DNA of 57,431 nucleotides from a virus (Duplodnaviria; Caudoviricetes): positions 1-57,431 of the IMG/VR virus record IMGVR_UViG_3300043652_000015. One strand, 5' to 3'. The translations under genes were made by a program, and so were the position numbers. Each line of letters starts with the position of its first letter. The stretch's first letter is position 1. A model generated the notes under the pieces. The model saw only the letters and a list, made by a program, of their open reading frames with translations, had not been told where the DNA came from and ran no database searches. Of this stretch, positions 551 through 8,330 are shown piece after piece.

Positions 551-2270
551 CGGTCCGCAGGGGCCTGTCGTTCCGTTCACGATCGGCCCGACGTGGCAGC
601 GGGACGAAGACGGCCGGTTCGTCCTGCCGTCGTTCACGCTCGGCTGGCAGGCCTTGTCGTGGACGGCGACGTACCTGCAGCACAGCCTGGGCAAGCCGTG
701 GCGCTACACCAACGAGCAGGCCCGGCTGACCCTGTGGTGGTACGCGGTCGATCCGGTCACCGGCCAGTTCATCTGGCGTGACGGGGTTGTCCAGCGCCTC
801 AAGGGCTGGGGCAAGGACCCGCTCGTGGCCACCTGGTCGGCGTTCGAGTTCGTCGGACCGTGCCGACCCAGCGATGAGATTGCCGAGGAGGGCAACGAGT
901 GGGGTGTACCAGCCGGGCAGCCGCTCGGGATGCAGCACCCGCAGGCCTGGGTGCAGATCGCCGCGGTGTCGCAGGACCAGACCCGGAACACGATGACGCT
1001 GTTCCCGTCGCTGCTGACGAAGCGGGCGATCCAGGAGTTCAGCATCGACCTCGGCAAGGAGATCATCTACGCCGACAAGGGCCGCGCCCGGGTCGAGGCC
1101 GTGACGTCATCACCGCGGGCCCTGGAGGGTGGGCGGCCGACGTTCACGAGCCTGGGCGAGACGCACCACTGGTTGGAGTCGAACTCGGGGCACGAGATGG
1201 CCGCGGTCATCGAGCGCAACGCCACCAAGTCCGCGGACGGCTCGTCCCGGACCCTGGCGAACACCAACGCGTTCGAGCCCGGCGAGGACTCAGTCGCCGA
1301 GCGCACCCGGGACGCGTTCGAGACCGTCCAGGCCGGGCGCGCGGTCGACACGGGACTGTTCTACGACACCCTTGAGGCCCCGGCTGAGGCGAAGCTCACT
1401 GAGGCGTGGCTGCGGCCGACGTTGGAGGCGGTCCGCGGGGATTCGTCGTGGTTGAACATCGACCGGATCATGAAGTCGATCCTGGACCCGCGCAACCCGC
1501 CGTCCCGGTCGCGCCGCTTCTGGTTCAACCAGGTCGTGGCAGCCGAGGACTCGTGGATGGCCCGGTACGAATGGGATGCCTGCGCGAATCCCGCGATGGA
1601 GCTTGCCGACGGCGACCAGATCGTCATGTTCCTGGACTGCTCAAAGTCGAACGACGCCACCGGGCTTGCGGCTTGCCGCATGTCCGACGGCCTGGTCGTG
1701 ACGCTCGGGGTATGGCAGCGGCCCTCTCACCTGCACGCCGACGACCTGTGGAATGTGCCGCGCGAGCAGGTCGACGGTGTGGTGGAGAACGCCTTCGCCC
1801 GCTTCAAGGTGCTGGGGTTCTTCGCCGACCCGGGGTCGGGCGCGGATGACGACGGTGAGGCGTACTGGGACCCGTTCTTGGAGAAGTGGTCGCAGGCCTT
1901 CGGCAAGAAGCTCCTGGTCCACGCCGTGACGATGGGCGCGAAGCGGCAGGCGGTGCGCTGGGACATGCGCGACAGGCGCCGGCAGGAGCAGTTCACCGCG
2001 GCGGTGAAGTTCACCTACGAGGACATCCTCGAACGCCGCTTGGTCCATGACGGTCACAAGGTCATGCGGCAGCACGTGATCAACGCTCACCGGCGCACGA
2101 ATGCCTGGGGCATCACGATCGGCAAGGAGCACCGTGCATCGTCTCGCAAGGTCGACTTGGCGGTCTGCATGATCGGCGCCCGAATGCTTCGCCGTCAGGT
2201 CCTGAACAGCAGCGAGTACAGCAAGAAGAAGACGGTTCGCGGCAAGGGACGGGTGGTGGTGATGCGATGA
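531..2270 (+). CDS. Terminase large subunit
   Basis: Walker A-like RLKGWGKDP, VQIAAVSQDQT, Walker B-like LGETHHW, nuclease motifs FLDCSKSNDAT and KVDLAV. Confidence 0.95.
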   Translation: MTSPEADGPQGPVVPFTIGPTWQRDEDGRFVLPSFTLGWQALSWTATYLQHSLGKPWRYTNEQARLTLWWYAVDPVTGQFIWRDGVVQRLKGWGKDPLVATWSAFEFVGPCRPSDEIAEEGNEWGVPAGQPLGMQHPQAWVQIAAVSQDQTRNTMTLFPSLLTKRAIQEFSIDLGKEIIYADKGRARVEAVTSSPRALEGGRPTFTSLGETHHWLESNSGHEMAAVIERNATKSADGSSRTLANTNAFEPGEDSVAERTRDAFETVQAGRAVDTGLFYDTLEAPAEAKLTEAWLRPTLEAVRGDSSWLNIDRIMKSILDPRNPPSRSRRFWFNQVVAAEDSWMARYEWDACANPAMELADGDQIVMFLDCSKSNDATGLAACRMSDGLVVTLGVWQRPSHLHADDLWNVPREQVDGVVENAFARFKVLGFFADPGSGADDDGEAYWDPFLEKWSQAFGKKLLVHAVTMGAKRQAVRWDMRDRRRQEQFTAAVKFTYEDILERRLVHDGHKVMRQHVINAHRRTNAWGITIGKEHRASSRKVDLAVCMIGARMLRRQVLNSSEYSKKKTVRGKGRVVVMR

Positions 2271-3724
2271 CGACTGCCTATGACCCGCAGGCTCCTGAGC
2301 TGCTGGAGTTGCTGTCCCTGTCGGACGACGAGTTGGCGATCATCAGTGTGCTGCGGCAGCAGTTGCTGTCGGAGCGGTGGCACCTGGAGTTGAAGGACGC
2401 GTACTTCAACGGCGAGCAGTTGGTGCGCGACCTGGGGATCAGCATCCCGCCGCAGTTGAAGGGGCTGCATACGGTCATCGGGTGGCCGCGGATCGGCGTG
2501 GAGGCGTTGGAGCAGCGCCTGGACTTGGATGCGTTCCGGTGGGCGGACGGGTCGGATTCTTCGGATCTGATGGCGGTGACGTCGGCGAATGACTTGTTCG
2601 ATGAGTCGTCGTTGGCGCATACGGATGCGCTGATCTACGGCAGGTCGCTGATCACGGTGGGGTCGGGTGACTGCGGCGGTGATGACTGCCCGGCGCTGGT
2701 GAGTATCGAGTCGCCGTTGGACATGGCGGTGCTGTGGGATGCGCGGTCGCGGACGGTGCTGGCTGCTCTGCGGGAGTGCCGCCCGGATCTGTTGGCGCCG
2801 GAGTTGGTCGACGACCGGATGATCGTGCTGTACCTGCCGGACCAGACCATTCAGGCGGTCCCGGCGGACTCGGGTGTCGGCTGGATCGTCGTGGACCGGG
2901 ACATGCACGGCCTCGGCGTGGTGCCGGTGGTGCGGATGTCGAACCGGCAGCGTGCGGGTGACCGTGTGGGCCGGTCGGAGATCACCGCCGATGTCATGTC
3001 GATCACGGATGCGGCGTGCCGCAGGTTGATGGGCATCGAGGTCGCGGCGGAGTTCTTCGGCGCGCCGCAACGCTACATCTTGGGTGCGACCGAGGAGGCG
3101 TTCCAGGACGCGGAGGGCAACGCCAAGTCGGCGTGGGAGACGTATATCGGGCGGATGCTGGCGCTGGAGCGGGACGAGGACGGGAACATCCCGGAGGTCG
3201 GCCAGTTCGCGGCGCATGACCCGTCCGGCCAGACGAAGATCATCGACTTGTATGCCCGGATCATGGCGACGCAGCTTGGTCTGCCGCCGCACATGCTGGG
3301 CTACACCTCGGACAACCCGGCGTCGGCGGACGCGATCCGTTCCTCCGAAGGCATGCTGATCAAGAAGGCCGAGCGGCGTCAGCGCAGGTTCGGTGCGTCG
3401 TGGGTGCAGGCGATGCGCTTGGCACTGTGGGTGCAGAACGGTGAGCCGCCCGACAAGCAGAAGGTCATCGAGCCGATCTGGCGCAACGCCGCCACCCCGA
3501 CCGTCGCGGCGTCCACGGATGCCGCGGTGAAGCTCGTGACGGCGAACATCCTCCCGGCAGAGTCCGACATCACGCTGCAGATGGTGGGGCTGACGCAGTC
3601 GCAGATCATGCAGGTGCAGGCTGACCGGAAGCGCCTGGGTGGCCAGCAGGCTGCGGCGGCGATTCTGGCGCGGCTGGATGGTCTTCAGCAGATAGGCAAC
3701 GTTGATGCCGCAGCCGGTAACTGA
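2267..3724 (+). CDS. Portal protein (SPP1 Gp6-like)
   Basis: 485 aa after TerL with ATGA overlap; GWPRIGVEALEQRL, GRSEIT, EFFGAPQRYILG, NPASADAI motifs. Confidence 0.93.
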   Translation: MTTAYDPQAPELLELLSLSDDELAIISVLRQQLLSERWHLELKDAYFNGEQLVRDLGISIPPQLKGLHTVIGWPRIGVEALEQRLDLDAFRWADGSDSSDLMAVTSANDLFDESSLAHTDALIYGRSLITVGSGDCGGDDCPALVSIESPLDMAVLWDARSRTVLAALRECRPDLLAPELVDDRMIVLYLPDQTIQAVPADSGVGWIVVDRDMHGLGVVPVVRMSNRQRAGDRVGRSEITADVMSITDAACRRLMGIEVAAEFFGAPQRYILGATEEAFQDAEGNAKSAWETYIGRMLALERDEDGNIPEVGQFAAHDPSGQTKIIDLYARIMATQLGLPPHMLGYTSDNPASADAIRSSEGMLIKKAERRQRRFGASWVQAMRLALWVQNGEPPDKQKVIEPIWRNAATPTVAASTDAAVKLVTANILPAESDITLQMVGLTQSQIMQVQADRKRLGGQQAAAAILARLDGLQQIGNVDAAAGN

Positions 3725-5606
3725 CGGGTCGGCAAGTGCCGCGCAGGCGCGTGCAGCGCAGGCGGGGCTGACGAAGCTCCTGGCGAGGGATATGCAGGCG
3801 CTCCGGAAGCTGATCGTGCCTTCGCGGATGCAGCAGACGGTGCCGCAGTGGATCCTCGCCGTCCGGGCCCTGGTGGGCCAGTACAGCAAGGCGTCGTCGT
3901 CGCTGGCGGCGGACTACTACGACGCGGAACGGGTGGCTTCGCGGGTGACGGGCCGGTTCACTGTGCCGTTGCTGGATCCGCCGTCGGATGAGCAGATCGA
4001 GGCGTCGCTGCGGTGGGCCACGAAGGACCTGTGGCCCCGTGATCCGGATGATCCGGCGACGACTCCGGTGCAGAAGCTGCCGTTGGAGCAGCGCCTGGAC
4101 GCGGCGGAGGTCAAGTCGGAGGCGGTGGCGCAGAAGCTGGTGACCGACACCGGTCGCGGAACGGTGCGCAGAGCCGTCCAGAGCGACCGGACGGCCGTCG
4201 GCTACGCGCGGGCCGCAGCGCTGGGGGCCTGCGCCTTCTGCCGACTCATGGCCAGCCGAGGCATGGTTTTCAAGTCGGCCGAATCGGCAGGACGGAACGC
4301 CAATAGCCAGTTCAGCGGCAACGACAGCACCGTGAAGTTCCACGACAACTGCGTCCCGGCCGGGACGCTAGTCGATGGGCCTGCCGCTGAAGTTGGCTAC
4401 CGACGGTACTACGAGGGGGAAATGCTGGTCATTGGCACTGCCGCTGGCCATGAGCTTTCCATCACCCCGAATCACCCGGTACTGACGGACCGAGGCTGGG
4501 TTCCGGCTGGCCTGCTGAGCCCAGGTGATCACGTACTCAGCAGCCTCGATGCACAAGGGAGCTCTCTTCAGGTCCCAGATGAAGAGCATGTGCCATCCCG
4601 CATCGAGGATGTATGGGGTGCGCTGAGCGTGCTCGGTCTTGTAGGCGTGCCAGTTGCCCCCGAGGACTTCCACGGCGACGGGGCCGACGGCGAAGTCCAT
4701 GTTGTACGAGCCGACGGCCTTCTGTGGCGTCACTCGGATGCCTGGGCCCTGGAGGTACTTGCCGAACTGGAACTCTCGCTCGCTTGCGTGCGCGAGAGTC
4801 TGTTCACGCTGCTGGGCTCGTCGGAAGAGCTCGCTGGCCGGGGCCTTGCGACCACGAACGGCATCGTGCGCGGCCTCTGTGAGTTGGAGTCGCTCCTCCT
4901 CGCTGAGCTGGGCAAGCCGGTTGGTCTGAGCGTCGCTGCGCCCGCGTATTGGCGCCTCGGCTTCGACGAGTACGCGGCGGATCACGCCGCGTGCGATCTC
5001 GAAGCGCGCGGCGAGAGCGAGTTCGCTCTCGCCTTGAAGGTAGGCAGCGACGATTTCAGCGGAGGGGAGATCGGCCTTCTGGCTGCGGGCGCTGATCCCC
5101 CGTTTGCTCAGCTCCCTGCACAGCACCGAGGTGCTGACGCCGCATTCGGCGTAGACCTCAGCGCCGTTCTTGCCTGCCAGATAGAGCGCGACCGCCCGGT
5201 CGAGCTTGGCGGTGGTAGTGCGGTAGGGGCGCCTCGGTTCGATCCCCCGGTCCCTTACGGCTCGGTGGATGGTCCCGGCGCTTATGCCGAGTTGGGCCGA
5301 GACCTGGGCGAACGTCTTGCCGGTCGCGTACAGCGCGACCGCATCGTCGAGGTCCGCCGGATTGATTTTGTTGGCGATGTCTACAACCTCCAGACGGCTC
5401 AAGGCTGGTACCGAGCCGATGGGGTAATTGTATCAAATTGCCACTGCCAATTGATCCCGGTCTTCAAGGGTCAGAAGTTCAACCTGTCCCCGCAGGCCGC
5501 AGAGTGGGCCCGCATCTACGAGGAGTACGCCGCCCCGTACTCGGGTGACCAGTTGAACCGCTTCCGGCAGGCCTTGGCCGCTCACGGGCACACGCCCGTC
5601 CTCTGA
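3705..5606 (+). CDS. MuF-like minor head / capsid maturation protein, interrupted by an intein
   Basis: Between portal and scaffold; GYAR..ACAFCRLMASRG; the H-D-N-/C-H-C motif is restored after removing 4350-5438 (spliced product ~270 aa). Confidence 0.85.
   Translation: MPQPVTDGSASAAQARAAQAGLTKLLARDMQALRKLIVPSRMQQTVPQWILAVRALVGQYSKASSSLAADYYDAERVASRVTGRFTVPLLDPPSDEQIEASLRWATKDLWPRDPDDPATTPVQKLPLEQRLDAAEVKSEAVAQKLVTDTGRGTVRRAVQSDRTAVGYARAAALGACAFCRLMASRGMVFKSAESAGRNANSQFSGNDSTVKFHDNCVPAGTLVDGPAAEVGYRRYYEGEMLVIGTAAGHELSITPNHPVLTDRGWVPAGLLSPGDHVLSSLDAQGSSLQVPDEEHVPSRIEDVWGALSVLGLVGVPVAPEDFHGDGADGEVHVVRADGLLWRHSDAWALEVLAELELSLACVRESLFTLLGSSEELAGRGLATTNGIVRGLCELESLLLAELGKPVGLSVAAPAYWRLGFDEYAADHAACDLEARGESEFALALKVGSDDFSGGEIGLLAAGADPPFAQLPAQHRGADAAFGVDLSAVLACQIERDRPVELGGGSAVGAPRFDPPVPYGSVDGPGAYAELGRDLGERLAGRVQRDRIVEVRRIDFVGDVYNLQTAQGWYRADGVIVSNCHCQLIPVFKGQKFNLSPQAAEWARIYEEYAAPYSGDQLNRFRQALAAHGHTPVL
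4368..5378 (-). CDS. Antisense, intein-nested HTH-repeat + Vsr/DUF559-like endonuclease (putative homing endonuclease); start uncertain (ATC 5378 or TTG 5402)
   Basis: Three HTH-like repeats (AVALYATGKTFAQVSAQLGISAGTIHRAV; AVALYLAGKNGAEVYAECGVSTSVL; IVAAYLQGESELALAARFEIARGVIRRVL), then ASERE..QKAVGSYNMDFAVGPVAVEVLGGNWH..R..ILDAGWHMLFIW. Confidence 0.85.
   Translation of the reverse strand: MANKINPADLDDAVALYATGKTFAQVSAQLGISAGTIHRAVRDRGIEPRRPYRTTTAKLDRAVALYLAGKNGAEVYAECGVSTSVLCRELSKRGISARSQKADLPSAEIVAAYLQGESELALAARFEIARGVIRRVLVEAEAPIRGRSDAQTNRLAQLSEEERLQLTEAAHDAVRGRKAPASELFRRAQQREQTLAHASEREFQFGKYLQGPGIRVTPQKAVGSYNMDFAVGPVAVEVLGGNWHAYKTEHAQRTPYILDAGWHMLFIWDLKRAPLCIEAAEYVITWAQQASRNPASVRQYRVIRGDGKLMASGSANDQHFPLVVPSVANFSGRPID
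5427..5435 (-). promoter_or_regulatory. Putative extended -10 promoter (TGATACAAT) for the antisense nuclease
   Basis: Reverse complement of ATTGTATCA; AT-rich codons GTA ATT GTA TCA AAT in a high-GC genome; about 35 nt upstream of a minus-strand GGAGG. Confidence 0.55.
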
Positions 5607-5674
5607 CTTTCTGACCCCTTTCCCTGGCCGCCCTGGTGGCGGCCTTTTCCATGCCCCAGGAGGGCCGCTTCGCC

Positions 5675-6322
5675 ATGCCCGAGAACACCGAGACCGACAC
5701 GCAGACCGAGACCGAGGACACCACCACCACCGAGGTGGAGGAGACGGCCGAGGAGCAGGGCGCGGAGGTTGCCGAGTCCGCTGAGCAGGCCCAGGAGGCC
5801 GAGGAGCAGACGGAGAAGCCGTTCGACCGCGCCCAGGCCGAGGCGAAGATCCGCAAGGCGAACTCGGAGGCCCAGAACCTCCGCAAGCGCCTGAAGGAGC
5901 TGGAGCCGAAGGCCGCCGAGCTGCAGCGCATCAAGGACGCCGAGAAGTCCGACACGGAGCGCCTGAGCGACCAGTTGACGGCCGCGAACGAGCGCATCGC
6001 GAAGACCCGCACGGCCCTGGCGAAGAGCCAGGTCCAGAAGCTCGCCGGGGCCACGTTCGCGGACCCGGAGGACGCGGTCACCGCCCTGGATCTCGACTCC
6101 TACATCGACGACGAGGGCGAGATCGACGAGGCCGCGATCGAGGCGGACCTGACGGACCTCCTCGCACGAAAGCCGCACTGGGCCCGTGCCCAGCCTGTGC
6201 AGCCCCAGGAGGGCGCGCGGCGGCCCGCACCGGATCGCACTCAGGCGTCCGGCGCCAACAAGACCCGACCCGCCAACCCGGCTGACGAGTTCTCCGGGTG
6301 GCTGAAGTCGCAGCTCAAGTAG
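5675..6322 (+). CDS. Capsid scaffolding protein
   Basis: Acidic N-terminus, coiled coil KIRKANSEAQNLRKRLKE, C-terminal PAPDRTQAS; precedes capsid. Confidence 0.85.
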   Translation: MPENTETDTQTETEDTTTTEVEETAEEQGAEVAESAEQAQEAEEQTEKPFDRAQAEAKIRKANSEAQNLRKRLKELEPKAAELQRIKDAEKSDTERLSDQLTAANERIAKTRTALAKSQVQKLAGATFADPEDAVTALDLDSYIDDEGEIDEAAIEADLTDLLARKPHWARAQPVQPQEGARRPAPDRTQASGANKTRPANPADEFSGWLKSQLK

Positions 6323-6342
6323 CTGCCGAAAGCGAGTACACC

Positions 6343-7296
6343 GTGGCTACTGCCGCAATCAAGCTGTCCGACCTCAACGCATCACTCCTGCCGCCGAACA
6401 TCACGGCCCCGATCTTCGAGAAGTCCGTGGAGCAGTCCGCGGTGATGTCGCTGGCCCGGCCGGCGCCGCTGTCGATCGACGCGACGACGGTCATCCCGAT
6501 CCCGATGGACGTCCCGACGGCGGACTGGGTCGGCTCGGCCCAGCGGAAGCCGCTGAGCTCGGGTGGTATCGACATCAAGTCGATGTCGGCGAAGAAGCTC
6601 GCCGTGCTGATCCCGGTCTCGGAAGAGGTCGCGATGACGAACGCGGCGGGCCTGTACGCGCAGCTGCAGCGCGACCTGCCGACCGCGTTCGCCCGGGCGT
6701 TCGACATGGCGGCGATCCACGGCAAGACCATGCGCGGGGCGACCGGCCCGTTCGGTGACTACCTGGCGATGACGACGAACACCATCGCCCTGGGTACCGC
6801 CAGCCAGTCGACGGGTGGGATCTGGAAGGACTTCGTCGCCGGGATGGCGGAGGTCGTCGACGACGACTGGGACTACACCGGCACCGTCGCCGACCACCGG
6901 CTGAAGCCGCTGCTGCTCCAGGCCACGGACACCACGGGTCGGCCGATCCTGGTCGACACCACGATCCCGGGCACGCAGATGGCCGCAGCTGGCACGCTGA
7001 TCGGCGAGCCGCTGGCGTACTCCCGCAGCGTGTCGGGCAAGCAGCGGCGTCAGTCGTCGAGCACCGACTCGGGTCTGCGGGCGGTGGGCGGGGACTGGTC
7101 GCAGGCGGCCTACGGCGTCGGCATGGACATCACCGTGCGGATCAGCAAGGAAGCCACCTACATCGACGAGGACGGCGGCGTCCACAGCGCGTTCCAGGAG
7201 AACCTGGTGCTGCTGCTCGCGGAGGCGTACTACGGGTACGTGCAGGGTGACGCGCAGGCGTTCGTGACCTACACCGGCACTCCGAGCGGGTCCTGA
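6343..7296 (+). CDS. Major capsid protein (HK97 fold)
   Basis: GTG 6343; KKLAVLIPVSEE, AFARAFDMAAIHG, DTTGRPIL, GDWSQ, FQENLVLLLAE. Confidence 0.93.
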   Translation: MATAAIKLSDLNASLLPPNITAPIFEKSVEQSAVMSLARPAPLSIDATTVIPIPMDVPTADWVGSAQRKPLSSGGIDIKSMSAKKLAVLIPVSEEVAMTNAAGLYAQLQRDLPTAFARAFDMAAIHGKTMRGATGPFGDYLAMTTNTIALGTASQSTGGIWKDFVAGMAEVVDDDWDYTGTVADHRLKPLLLQATDTTGRPILVDTTIPGTQMAAAGTLIGEPLAYSRSVSGKQRRQSSSTDSGLRAVGGDWSQAAYGVGMDITVRISKEATYIDEDGGVHSAFQENLVLLLAEAYYGYVQGDAQAFVTYTGTPSGS

Positions 7297-8330
7297 TGGT
7301 GGCCGTCCCGGCTTCCGCGCCGGGCGGGACGGCCAAGCCGCGAAGGATCATCGCCCGGGTGCATGCCGCACCGCCGGAGCACAATGCCGGGGCCGAGCAC
7401 ATGCTGATGTCGATGCTGCGGCCCCTGGTGGGTCGCGGCCACGACGTGCAGGTGTGGCTGTCCCGGTACGGCAAGGCGACCAAGGCCTACGAGTACCAGG
7501 GCGTGAAGGTCGTCCCTCTGCCCGCCCGCCTGGACTTCTCCCTGGCGGTGCGCCGCGCCGATGTGCTGGTCTCGCACCTGGAGTGCGTTCCGGCTACGGC
7601 GTCTTTGGCCCGCGGGTACGGCAAGCCGCTGGTGGTGGTGTGCCACAACACGCACAGGCCTTCGTTCCGTGACATGGCTGCTGGTGGTACGTCGCTGGCG
7701 GTGTACAACTCGCTGTGGATGCAGGCGGAGGCGGAGCTGTTCTTCGCCGAGTACCCGCAGGGTGTTCGCCCGGGCAGCACCCTGGTGGTGCGTCCGCCGG
7801 TGTTCGCCGAGGAGTACGCGACCAAGCCGGGCGACTGCGTGACGTTGATCAACTGCTACACCGAGAAGGGTGGTCACACTCTGGAGCGCCTGGCCCGGCG
7901 CATGCCGGACGTCAAGTTCCTGGGTGTGCGCGGTGCTTACGGTGAGCAGGTGCTTCCGGATCTTCCGAACGTGGAGATCCTCGACCACGTCCCGGGTGAT
8001 CAGATGCGGGAGCGGGTGTATGCCCGCACGAAGGTCCTGATCATGCCGTCCTCCTACGAGTCGTGGGGCCGGGTCGGGGCTGAGGCCTTGGCCTCCGGTA
8101 TCCCCGTCGTGGCCCACCCGACGCCGGGTCTGACGGAGTCCCTGGCCAGTGGCGGGATCTTCGTGGAGCGCGAGGACATCGCCGGGCACGAACTGGTGCT
8201 CCGGAAACTCCTGGGCTCCACGTCCGAGTACCGGCTCGCGTCGAAGCGGGCCCTGGCCCGCAGCGCCGAGCTCGACCCCTCCGATGAGCTGGCCGCCTGG
8301 TGCGGCACGGTGGAGGCCCTGGCCCGATAG
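7296..8330 (+). CDS. Glycosyltransferase, GT-B / GT4-like
   Basis: HNAGAEH, GHDVQV, EKGG, MPSSYESWGRVGAEALASGIPVV (EX7E); TGATG-coupled to the capsid stop. Confidence 0.9.
   Translation: MVAVPASAPGGTAKPRRIIARVHAAPPEHNAGAEHMLMSMLRPLVGRGHDVQVWLSRYGKATKAYEYQGVKVVPLPARLDFSLAVRRADVLVSHLECVPATASLARGYGKPLVVVCHNTHRPSFRDMAAGGTSLAVYNSLWMQAEAELFFAEYPQGVRPGSTLVVRPPVFAEEYATKPGDCVTLINCYTEKGGHTLERLARRMPDVKFLGVRGAYGEQVLPDLPNVEILDHVPGDQMRERVYARTKVLIMPSSYESWGRVGAEALASGIPVVAHPTPGLTESLASGGIFVEREDIAGHELVLRKLLGSTSEYRLASKRALARSAELDPSDELAAWCGTVEALAR

Follow-up and report, generated by a model that had tools for sequence, protein, structure and literature searches.

A putative homing endonuclease encoded in register on the strand opposite an intein in a phage MuF-like head-assembly gene

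Homing endonucleases (HENs) encoded outside the reading frame of their intein are already on record. In its accessible text, the preprint of Gosselin, Arsenault and Gogarten (10.1101/2025.01.02.630785, version 2025-10-20) surveys PhagesDB and reports 63 inteins with non-canonical HENs, including an 'anti-sense VSR-like HEN' in full actinophage inteins; DNA polymerase, minor capsid, TerL and thymidylate synthase are given as the hosts of the non-canonical group as a whole. For inteins with antisense LAGLIDADG HENs it refers to Gorbalenya 1998 and Gogarten 2002, and for Vsr-like HENs associated with split inteins to Dassa et al. 2009. A second preprint, likewise considered here in its accessible text (Phillips, DeSimone and Gogarten, 10.64898/2026.09.14.751524), reports frame-specific ratios of nonsynonymous to synonymous substitution rates (dN/dS) for an out-of-frame LAGLIDADG HEN in a dnaX intein. 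Here we analyzed a stretch of 57,431 nucleotides, hereafter the window, which spans positions 1 to 57,431 of the metagenomic phage record IMGVR_UViG_3300043652_000015 (Duplodnaviria; Caudoviricetes). Its MuF-like head-assembly gene is interrupted by an intein, and a second open reading frame (ORF) runs through this intein on the opposite strand. A preliminary description of the locus had taken the arrangement to be undescribed; the 2025 preprint, as far as its accessible text goes, has already described it. We consider it highly probable that the locus is a mobile intein whose putative HEN is a separate, in-register gene on the opposite strand.

The host ORF matches Pfam VG15 over its residues 12-217 (E 1.4e-44) as well as phrog_193 and phrog_15127 (head and packaging), and a tblastn search with its N-extein at E <= 1e-10 found no match among GenBank phages. 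The 363-residue intein with blocks A, B, F and G lies exactly where the preliminary description had placed it (Table 1). The residues expected of a class 1 intein are present (Cys1, T39-P-N-H42, Asn363 and Cys+1); in profile A2, built from 51 relatives, T39, N41 and H42 never vary, conservation of N363 is at least 90%, and the penultimate residue is His in the A2 consensus and Ser in the window. Profile A2 matches solved inteins (Mtu RecA mini-intein 2IMZ, E 8.7e-9; Pho RadA, E 2.5e-8). By itself, the window intein matches a single Pfam family, Intein_splicing, and does so weakly (21 bits against a cut-off of 35.8). The MuF precursor is a putative substrate of protein splicing, as suggested by the role of MuF-type proteins in head assembly and by a frame kept open in 155/156 loci.

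The plus-frame intein was modeled by AlphaFold (51 homologues) with a mean predicted local distance difference test score (pLDDT) of 63.8, distributed very unevenly: 91-97 over residues 1-60, 85-98 over residues 311-363, and mostly below 50-70 in between, with values under 50 over residues 163-215 and 225-305. The middle of the frame matches no Pfam family, and about 200 codons between the Hint lobes evolve near-neutrally at the protein level without stops. The preliminary description had regarded this entire middle as a shadow translation of the other strand. That view holds for residues of about 117-325, which are unconstrained, and fails for residues 67-116, where E86, D87 and F107-G111 are conserved. 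The helix carrying E86 and D87 probably belongs to the intein fold, since it aligns with the 'IPARVQALADAL' helix of 2IMZ and residues 81-90 are modeled with a pLDDT of 92; no alignment to a solved structure extends over the F-H-G-D-G motif. Two further ideas about the plus frame were considered and set aside. Its contiguous E-D-F-H-G-D resembles the 'EDxHD' nuclease motif, but EDxHD is a composite of distant residues (Taylor et al., PMC3239194, in the portion consulted), and a plus-frame nuclease is also ruled out by the missing family match, the low pLDDT and the presence of the DUF559-type pattern in the minus frame. The likeness of F-H-G-D to the F-H-D-N that ends the N-extein, which could suggest a copy of the target site, is treated as coincidence because N-extein ends vary among relatives.

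As previously noted, the codons of the minus-strand ORF coincide with those of the intein, and the ORF stops at a TAG 18 nt inside the intein; antisense residue j occupies the codon of sense residue i when i + j = 352. Judged by profiles and modeled structure, it is a real gene whose predicted product consists of three helix-turn-helix (HTH) units joined by a helical linker to a nuclease core of the Vsr/DUF559 type. The N-terminal region exceeds the curated cut-offs of two Pfam families (HTH_23, 33.9 bits against 24.6; HTH_58, 29.9 bits against 23.8). Among 53 relatives, 42 match HTH_23, and at E <= 0.01 35 match MTES_1575 and 16 match DUF559. The profile of these relatives matches the DUF559 structure 3HRL (E 1.2e-5) with the pattern Y-x-x-D-F ... 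V-E-x-x-G-G-x-W-H aligned, and its N-terminal part matches the tandem-HTH protein 2LVS (E 1.7e-7). AlphaFold (53 homologues) modeled the minus protein with a mean pLDDT of 91 as three three-helix units, four linker helices and an alpha/beta core; in Foldseek this model found I-Bth0305I 3R3P (probability 0.98-0.99, E 0.03), 3HRL (0.92) and Vsr 1VSR (0.91). Profile searches and structure models of both strands therefore agree with what the preliminary description had expected, namely a Hint fold on the plus strand and HTH plus DUF559/Vsr on the minus strand. Some database copies were already named 'very-short-patch-repair endonuclease' by their source.

The candidate catalytic residues are well kept across the family. 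In alignment A1, D236 and E245 never change, H252 is kept in at least 90%, and all three occur together in 121/137 unique sequences. A further candidate, E210, is Glu in 135/142. The final acidic position of the composite EDxHD motif (the 'ILD' position, D267 in the window) varies between D, N, E and S, with Asp in 76 and Asn in 48 of about 140 sequences. Leu in place of the Asp of 'E-x-D-G' had been flagged as a caveat; it is no defect, the position being Phe in 67 and Leu in 54 of the 136 aligned unique sequences.

Substitution patterns support purifying selection on the antisense frame in regions where the sense frame escapes it. Values of dN/dS were obtained by the Nei-Gojobori method from 21 independent pairs at 61-95% identity. 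Over blocks F and G, which lie upstream of where the nuclease begins, dN/dS was 2.03 in the antisense and 0.12 in the sense frame. The relation was reversed over the HTH units and linker (0.36 antisense, 0.95 sense) and over the nuclease core (0.31 and 0.84), as anticipated for the central region. In each central region the antisense third codon position was more variable than the first in 20/21 pairs. A direct comparison of the window with one of its closest intein-carrying relatives, L078, gave 0.32 for the antisense and 1.05 for the sense frame over the HTH units and linker. Finally, in the tail that crosses Hint blocks A-B (HEN residues 286-344, about 59 codons) second-position differences amounted to 6.8% and both ratios were low (0.59 antisense, 0.44 sense), bearing out the earlier claim that both strands are constrained near block B.

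A codon entropy scan at the conserved residues of 143-144 unique nuclease ORFs located the places where one frame limits the other. Synonymous choice is free (ratio 0.85-1.04) at nuclease residues 121-235, which face sense residues 117-231. It is suppressed opposite Hint block B (0.04-0.07), as expected, and also at HEN codons 265-266, which face D87 and E86 (0.21-0.28), and at HEN codons 241-245 (0.09-0.35). The latter form a catalytic strand whose reverse complement is the F-H-G-D-G motif; the preliminary description had already recognized that sense EDFHGDG (4662-4682) is the reverse complement of PVAVEVL. The V-A-V-E codons read exactly GTC GCC GTG GAA in 115/137 unique sequences, where pooled codon usage would predict 1.9%. 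They are kept even in loci at 41-45% guanine-plus-cytosine (GC) content, and other synonyms appear in the free-standing relative of Acinetobacter phage P1068 described below. At the nucleotide level, a 65-nt stretch around this strand (4657-4721) has 83-86% identity to Salmonella phage DNA among the matches listed, with at least 80 records at 80-90%, probably because of the double constraint.

Table 1. Coordinates of the intein, the antisense ORF and neighboring features in the window
Feature	Position	Strand	Details
Portal gene	2267-3724		SPP1_portal; first in the late operon order portal, MuF-like, probable scaffold, major capsid
MuF-like (Pfam VG15) head-morphogenesis / minor capsid precursor gene	3702-5606	+	634 aa; interrupted by the intein
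N-extein	3702-4349	+	216 aa; C-terminal residues ..KFHDN
Intein	4350-5438	+	363 aa; blocks A, B, F, G; Cys1 4350-4352; Asn363 5436-5438; Cys+1 5439-5441
Hint N-lobe, blocks A and B	4350-4547	+	Sense residues 1-66; T39-x-x-H42
Sense-frame helix ..P-S-R-I-E-D-V..	4593-4628	+	Sense residues 82-93; E86 and D87 constrained; opposite nuclease residues 259-270
Doubly constrained core, 15 nt	4668-4682	both	Minus P241-V-A-V-E245 (catalytic strand); plus F107-H-G-D-G111
Hint C-lobe, blocks F and G	5325-5438	+	Sense residues about 326-363
C-extein (CHCQ...) and stop codon	5439-5606	+
Antisense ORF, putative HEN	4368-5402	-	344 codons from TTG 5402; 336 from 5378; stop TAG 4368-4370
Shine-Dalgarno-like GGAGG	5387-5391	-	8 nt upstream of the conserved start; plus strand is block F (..Y-N-L-Q..)
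Conserved start-codon position of the nuclease family	5376-5378	-	ATC (Ile) in the window
HTH unit 1	5250-5360	-	HEN residues 15-51; HTH_23 on 21-51; predicted helices 15-26, 31-38, 42-51
HTH unit 2	5103-5213	-	HEN residues 64-100; predicted helices 64-75, 80-87, 91-100
HTH unit 3	4962-5063	-	HEN residues 114-147; HTH_58 on 115-158; predicted helices 114-122, 127-133, 138-147
Helical linker	4788-4940	-	HEN residues 155-205; predicted helices 155-165, 168-182, 189-202; pLDDT 90-97
Vsr/DUF559-type nuclease core	4503-4787	-	HEN residues 206-300
Candidate catalytic residues	4695-4697; 4668-4670; 4647-4649	-	D236; E245; H252
Nuclease C-terminal tail	4371-4502	-	HEN residues 301-344; opposite Hint blocks A-B; predicted strands 307-311, 317-322; pLDDT 85-95
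Major capsid gene	6298-7296		Phage_capsid match; probable scaffold gene between the MuF-like and capsid genes

We then determined how widely this arrangement occurs. A tblastn search with the minus protein returned 131 phage records, each below 60% identity, from phages of Gordonia, Salmonella, Escherichia, Aggregatibacter/Haemophilus, Pseudomonas, Klebsiella, Vibrio, Acinetobacter and others. In 11 of 12 fetched loci the match lies antisense within a gene annotated as head-morphogenesis, MuF-like, minor-capsid or capsid-maturation, and for one of these genes, in E. coli phage Snoke (MK931441.1), the annotation mentions an intein. None of the 11 has a stop in either in-register frame, including 340 codons at 42% GC in Aaphi23. 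Like Snoke, the cultured Gordonia phages Malisha and Fosterous, which grow on Gordonia terrae, have this arrangement. A larger set of 156 loci was assembled from the phage-record loci, 64 prokaryote-genome loci and the best 80 of 550 confirmed IMG/VR stretches (550/596 candidates confirmed). The prokaryote genome contigs yielded no loci when searched with the single nuclease protein and 64 with alignment A1. The opposite in-register frame is open over the full match in 155/156 loci, which range from 35 to 73% GC, and loci at 41-45% GC are open as well; the two remaining minus frames contain 7.8 and 12.6 stops on average. The sense codons TTA, CTA and TCA occur 12 times inside the matched stretch of 149 loci against about 558 expected from extein usage, so the sense frame is indeed kept open, as had been proposed. 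The family is thus far wider than actinophages and includes phages of Salmonella, Escherichia, Klebsiella, Pseudomonas, Vibrio and Aggregatibacter.

Among 20 sampled host proteins, Intein_splicing was matched at E <= 1e-3 by 19 and above its cut-off by 6, and one matched nothing. Phage_Mu_F was found in 13/20, the match breaking off immediately ahead of the intein (profile position about 96-107 of 112); on this evidence the family occupies one insertion site in MuF-type proteins across many phyla. A Phage_portal domain was present in 5/20 (L033, L039, L050, L108 and L128), all of them long intein hosts. In the last four Phage_Mu_F follows Phage_portal, giving portal-MuF fusions of about 950-1100 aa with the intein at the MuF end. 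One MuF-type host protein may carry two inteins: L063, on a Scytonema metagenome-assembled genome contig (1307-4096, minus strand), matches PT-HINT/Hint_2/Vint over residues 65-195 and Intein_splicing over 230-554. In Jersey-like Salmonella phages the nuclease ORF spans just 272 codons, the first HTH units being absent. In the Gordonia phages Angelicage, Affeca, Keitabear and Sedona we found the Vsr-like antisense protein within MuF-like genes (tblastn E 6e-31 to 3e-6); the accessible text of 10.1101/2025.01.02.630785 places 'Angelicase, Affeca, Keitabear, and Sedona' in one cluster of inteins whose out-of-frame HEN is endonuclease VII-like. The two results may concern separate inteins of these phages or may reflect differing classification.

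Carriage among close relatives is sporadic. The 80 closest IMG/VR relatives of the window N-extein (53-87% identity) comprise 76 without intein, 2 incomplete and 2 carriers, L013 and L078 (2/78 complete), and on the maximum-likelihood tree of N-exteins the three carriers, counting the window, call for at least two gains or losses. This pattern fits homing without proving it. Acinetobacter phage P1068 (OQ689089.1, L012) carries a free-standing homologue (2732-3508, minus strand; 26.6% identity to the window nuclease over 282 residues, E 8.6e-25), convergent with and abutting a MuF gene (1803-2738, plus strand), its stop only a few bases from the MuF stop codon. That MuF gene is uninterrupted, matching Phage_Mu_F contiguously over positions 1-110 of 112, and the frame opposite the nuclease contains 13 stops over the ORF, 10 of them within the matched stretch. 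In 156 BLASTP comparisons of P1068 with the nested C-terminal tail (last 60 residues, either frame), scores reached at most about 21 bits. The free-standing form may be either the ancestor of the nested one or an escapee from it.

Taken together, these features suggest how the element could work. The MuF precursor would be translated through the spacer and then spliced to mature MuF, and the nuclease would be made from an antisense transcript using the GGAGG and start codon embedded in block F. It would bind the intein-less MuF allele and cut near the ..FHDN|CHC.. junction, whereupon repair would copy the intein and the nuclease gene together (homing). Such nesting would come cheaply: when the codons of the two strands coincide, each stop codon reads as TTA, CTA or TCA on the opposite strand, so openness requires only that two Leu codons and one Ser codon be avoided, and with three forbidden codons per gene the cost of dual coding is almost nil. 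The register is codon-for-codon in every case, and the reason, we infer, is that synonymous choice then leaves either protein free to be encoded.

A stronger reading is that intein and antisense nuclease form a co-adapted dual-coding unit and are not merely stacked. It would hold that both strands are functional over about 110 codons at the 3' terminus of the nuclease gene and about 18 at the 5' terminus, that the V-A-V-E synonymous sites are locked by the plus-frame F-H-G-D-G, that block F also encodes the nuclease start signals, and that the design, in its constant register, has spread via MuF genes across many phyla, with at least 550 IMG/VR stretches. Taken jointly with all these parts, we regard this reading as evenly balanced between true and false. 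The F-H-G-D-G motif could be a structural anchor of the intein N-lobe or a contact between intein protein and nuclease. The design may also explain MuF inteins earlier judged to lack an endonuclease. Annotation of one gene per locus misses the antisense nuclease and makes such inteins appear nuclease-less or degenerate. The protein F intein in a Mu-like prophage of Methylococcus capsulatus, which in the consulted part of the 2004 genome paper (PMC517821) 'lacks a recognizable endonuclease sequence', may be an overlooked case.

Several observations weigh against a functional antisense HEN in the window or against the generality of the pattern. The window copy stays below the curated cut-offs of the nuclease families (MTES_1575, 20.5 bits against 38.2, E 5e-4; DUF559, 14.5 against 20.6, E 0.03), and all Foldseek E-values exceed 1e-3, because the query was the whole multi-domain chain. 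Loci L014-L156 were found with alignment A1, partly by a pattern shadowing Hint block B, a retrieval that favors nested over free-standing forms. One or two nuclease-frame stops fall within the tblastn match in 12/156 loci (L006, L025, L045, L048, L050, L054, L083, L097, L100, L104, L115 and L149), which are either decaying copies or matches running past the ORF end. The N-extein tree is a quick one with support from the SH-like approximate likelihood ratio test (SH-aLRT) only. Of the four sequencing runs that contain the stretch, none is listed as RNA. A consensus scan of positions 4000-6000 on both strands, weak for such organisms, found no sigma-70-like promoter; it returned one terminator-like site on the plus strand (5626-5644), uninformative for this type of organism. 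The remaining points concern the nuclease start. Sequence comparison puts the predicted ribosome-binding site and start codon of the family inside intein block F: among 150 aligned sequences the start column is ATG in 81, GTG in 36 and TTG in 6 (123/150), and 108/150 have GGAG or GAGG at -21 to -4. The window and its 99% twin L013 have ATC there, and the upstream TTG at 5402 is preceded by no Shine-Dalgarno-like sequence.

With ATC at the conserved start, the window copy may be poorly expressed or just entering decay. The most serious alternative follows this line: the family would be as described, with the window copy barely or no longer expressed, in an early decay phase and vertically inherited. 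Besides the start codon itself, it draws on the nearest homologues, which are 336 aa long and have Met at that position. Set against it are the intact 344-codon ORF with all three candidate catalytic residues, the GGAGG kept upstream of the ATC, and the low antisense dN/dS between the window and L078, which, however, averages both lineages. Codons ATT, ATC and ATA are able to initiate at low efficiency, and as seven aligned sequences besides the window (8 in all) have one of them at the start column, near-cognate starts may be tolerated. We regard decay of the window copy as possible though clearly the less likely course.

It is improbable, in our judgment, that the minus protein is real and serves the phage in another capacity, as a domesticated DNA-binding regulator or a nicking or repair enzyme. 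The variable last acidic residue of the composite motif would permit such a role, and most of the protein (the three HTH units and the linker) is a DNA-binding architecture also seen in regulators. Its placement argues otherwise: 155/156 loci lie inside an intein-sized in-register opening and the exception adjoins an intein-less MuF gene, while 11/11 annotated nested loci and 13/20 Pfam-scanned hosts are MuF-type with one site. Nesting within an intein at a single MuF site is the signature of a site-specific selfish nuclease, and both the conservation of D236, E245 and H252 and the sporadic carriage among close MuF relatives speak against a non-homing role as well.

That the minus ORF is a high-GC artefact mirroring the plus-frame protein is scarcely credible: the GC content of 61-68% around the intein means that ORF length alone is not beyond chance (a junk-like, Arg/Pro/His-rich in-register antisense ORF of 564 aa, a local GC-driven shadow, lies opposite the portal gene at 2195-3889 on the minus strand), and in-register translations echo each other because they share the middle codon position, so that both frames give BLASTP matches between relatives, but the reading is rejected by the open frames at low GC, the curated HTH matches and confident minus model, the 155/156 open loci, the frame-specific dN/dS with substitutions concentrated at the minus third position, and the free-standing homologue with its 13 opposing stops.

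Elsewhere in the head module, a family-4 glycosyltransferase gene (7296-8330, plus strand; Glyco_trans_1_4, E 1.3e-11; GT4-conflict, E 1.1e-7) stands directly 3' of the major capsid gene, an odd neighbor in this position.

We see in this locus a clear case of dual coding, in which one stretch of DNA serves two selfish functions on two strands. The frozen synonymous sites of the catalytic strand offer a handle on the mutual constraint between overlapping proteins, and the arrangement is a large family in phages of many phyla and no actinophage curiosity. The details added here are moderately interesting, above all how deeply dual coding reaches into the catalytic strand and how broad the family is.

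The nuclease core can be compared with several known enzymes. Its closest sequence family is DUF559 (PF04480) / REase_MTES_1575 (PF18741), represented by PDB 3HRL; these domains usually stand alone or are fused to other modules and are not known from the present searches to be nested antisense, and their 'E-x-D-G' Asp is replaced by Leu or Phe across the antisense family. In fold, the best Foldseek match of the core is I-Bth0305I (Taylor et al. 2011, PMC3239194; 3R3P), with a target-normalized template modeling score of 0.55-0.57. A profile search of PDB sequences did not return 3R3P at E <= 1, so this relatedness is seen by fold comparison only. As described in the consulted portion of that paper, I-Bth0305I likewise joins an N-terminal HTH-type region to a C-terminal Vsr-fold nuclease, and equivalents of its Asp and His are present in the window (D236 and H252). 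Unlike the window nuclease, it is encoded by a recA group I intron and carries NUMOD-type repeats, and the final acidic residue of EDxHD is not conserved in the antisense family. The fractured genes of Dassa et al. 2009 (PMC2677866, in the part consulted) also combine a Vsr-related putative HEN with phage inteins and have free-standing relatives; there, host and intein are split into two trans-splicing ORFs, whereas the window intein frame is continuous, and a term search of the accessible text found no mention of antisense nesting. The cyanobacterial dnaX intein (10.64898/2026.09.14.751524) shares with the window a nuclease frame under purifying selection and a relaxed overlapping intein frame; as far as its accessible text goes, it differs in its LAGLIDADG nuclease, its dnaX host, its cyanobacterial setting and its +2 frame on the same strand.

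The nearest counterparts remain the actinophage inteins of 10.1101/2025.01.02.630785. According to the accessible text, these are full inteins with a separate antisense HEN ORF, with minor capsid among the hosts, and with an in-frame middle predicted to be unstructured; both the antisense ORF and the unstructured middle are found in the window element. That text is confined to PhagesDB actinophages and gives no frame-specific selection test for the VSR-like type. The window ORF, from a metagenomic phage, has its start within block F, and its end extends over blocks A-B. What our analysis adds is the breadth beyond actinophages, the universal register, the start signals in block F, the frozen synonymous sites of the catalytic strand and the free-standing relative in P1068.

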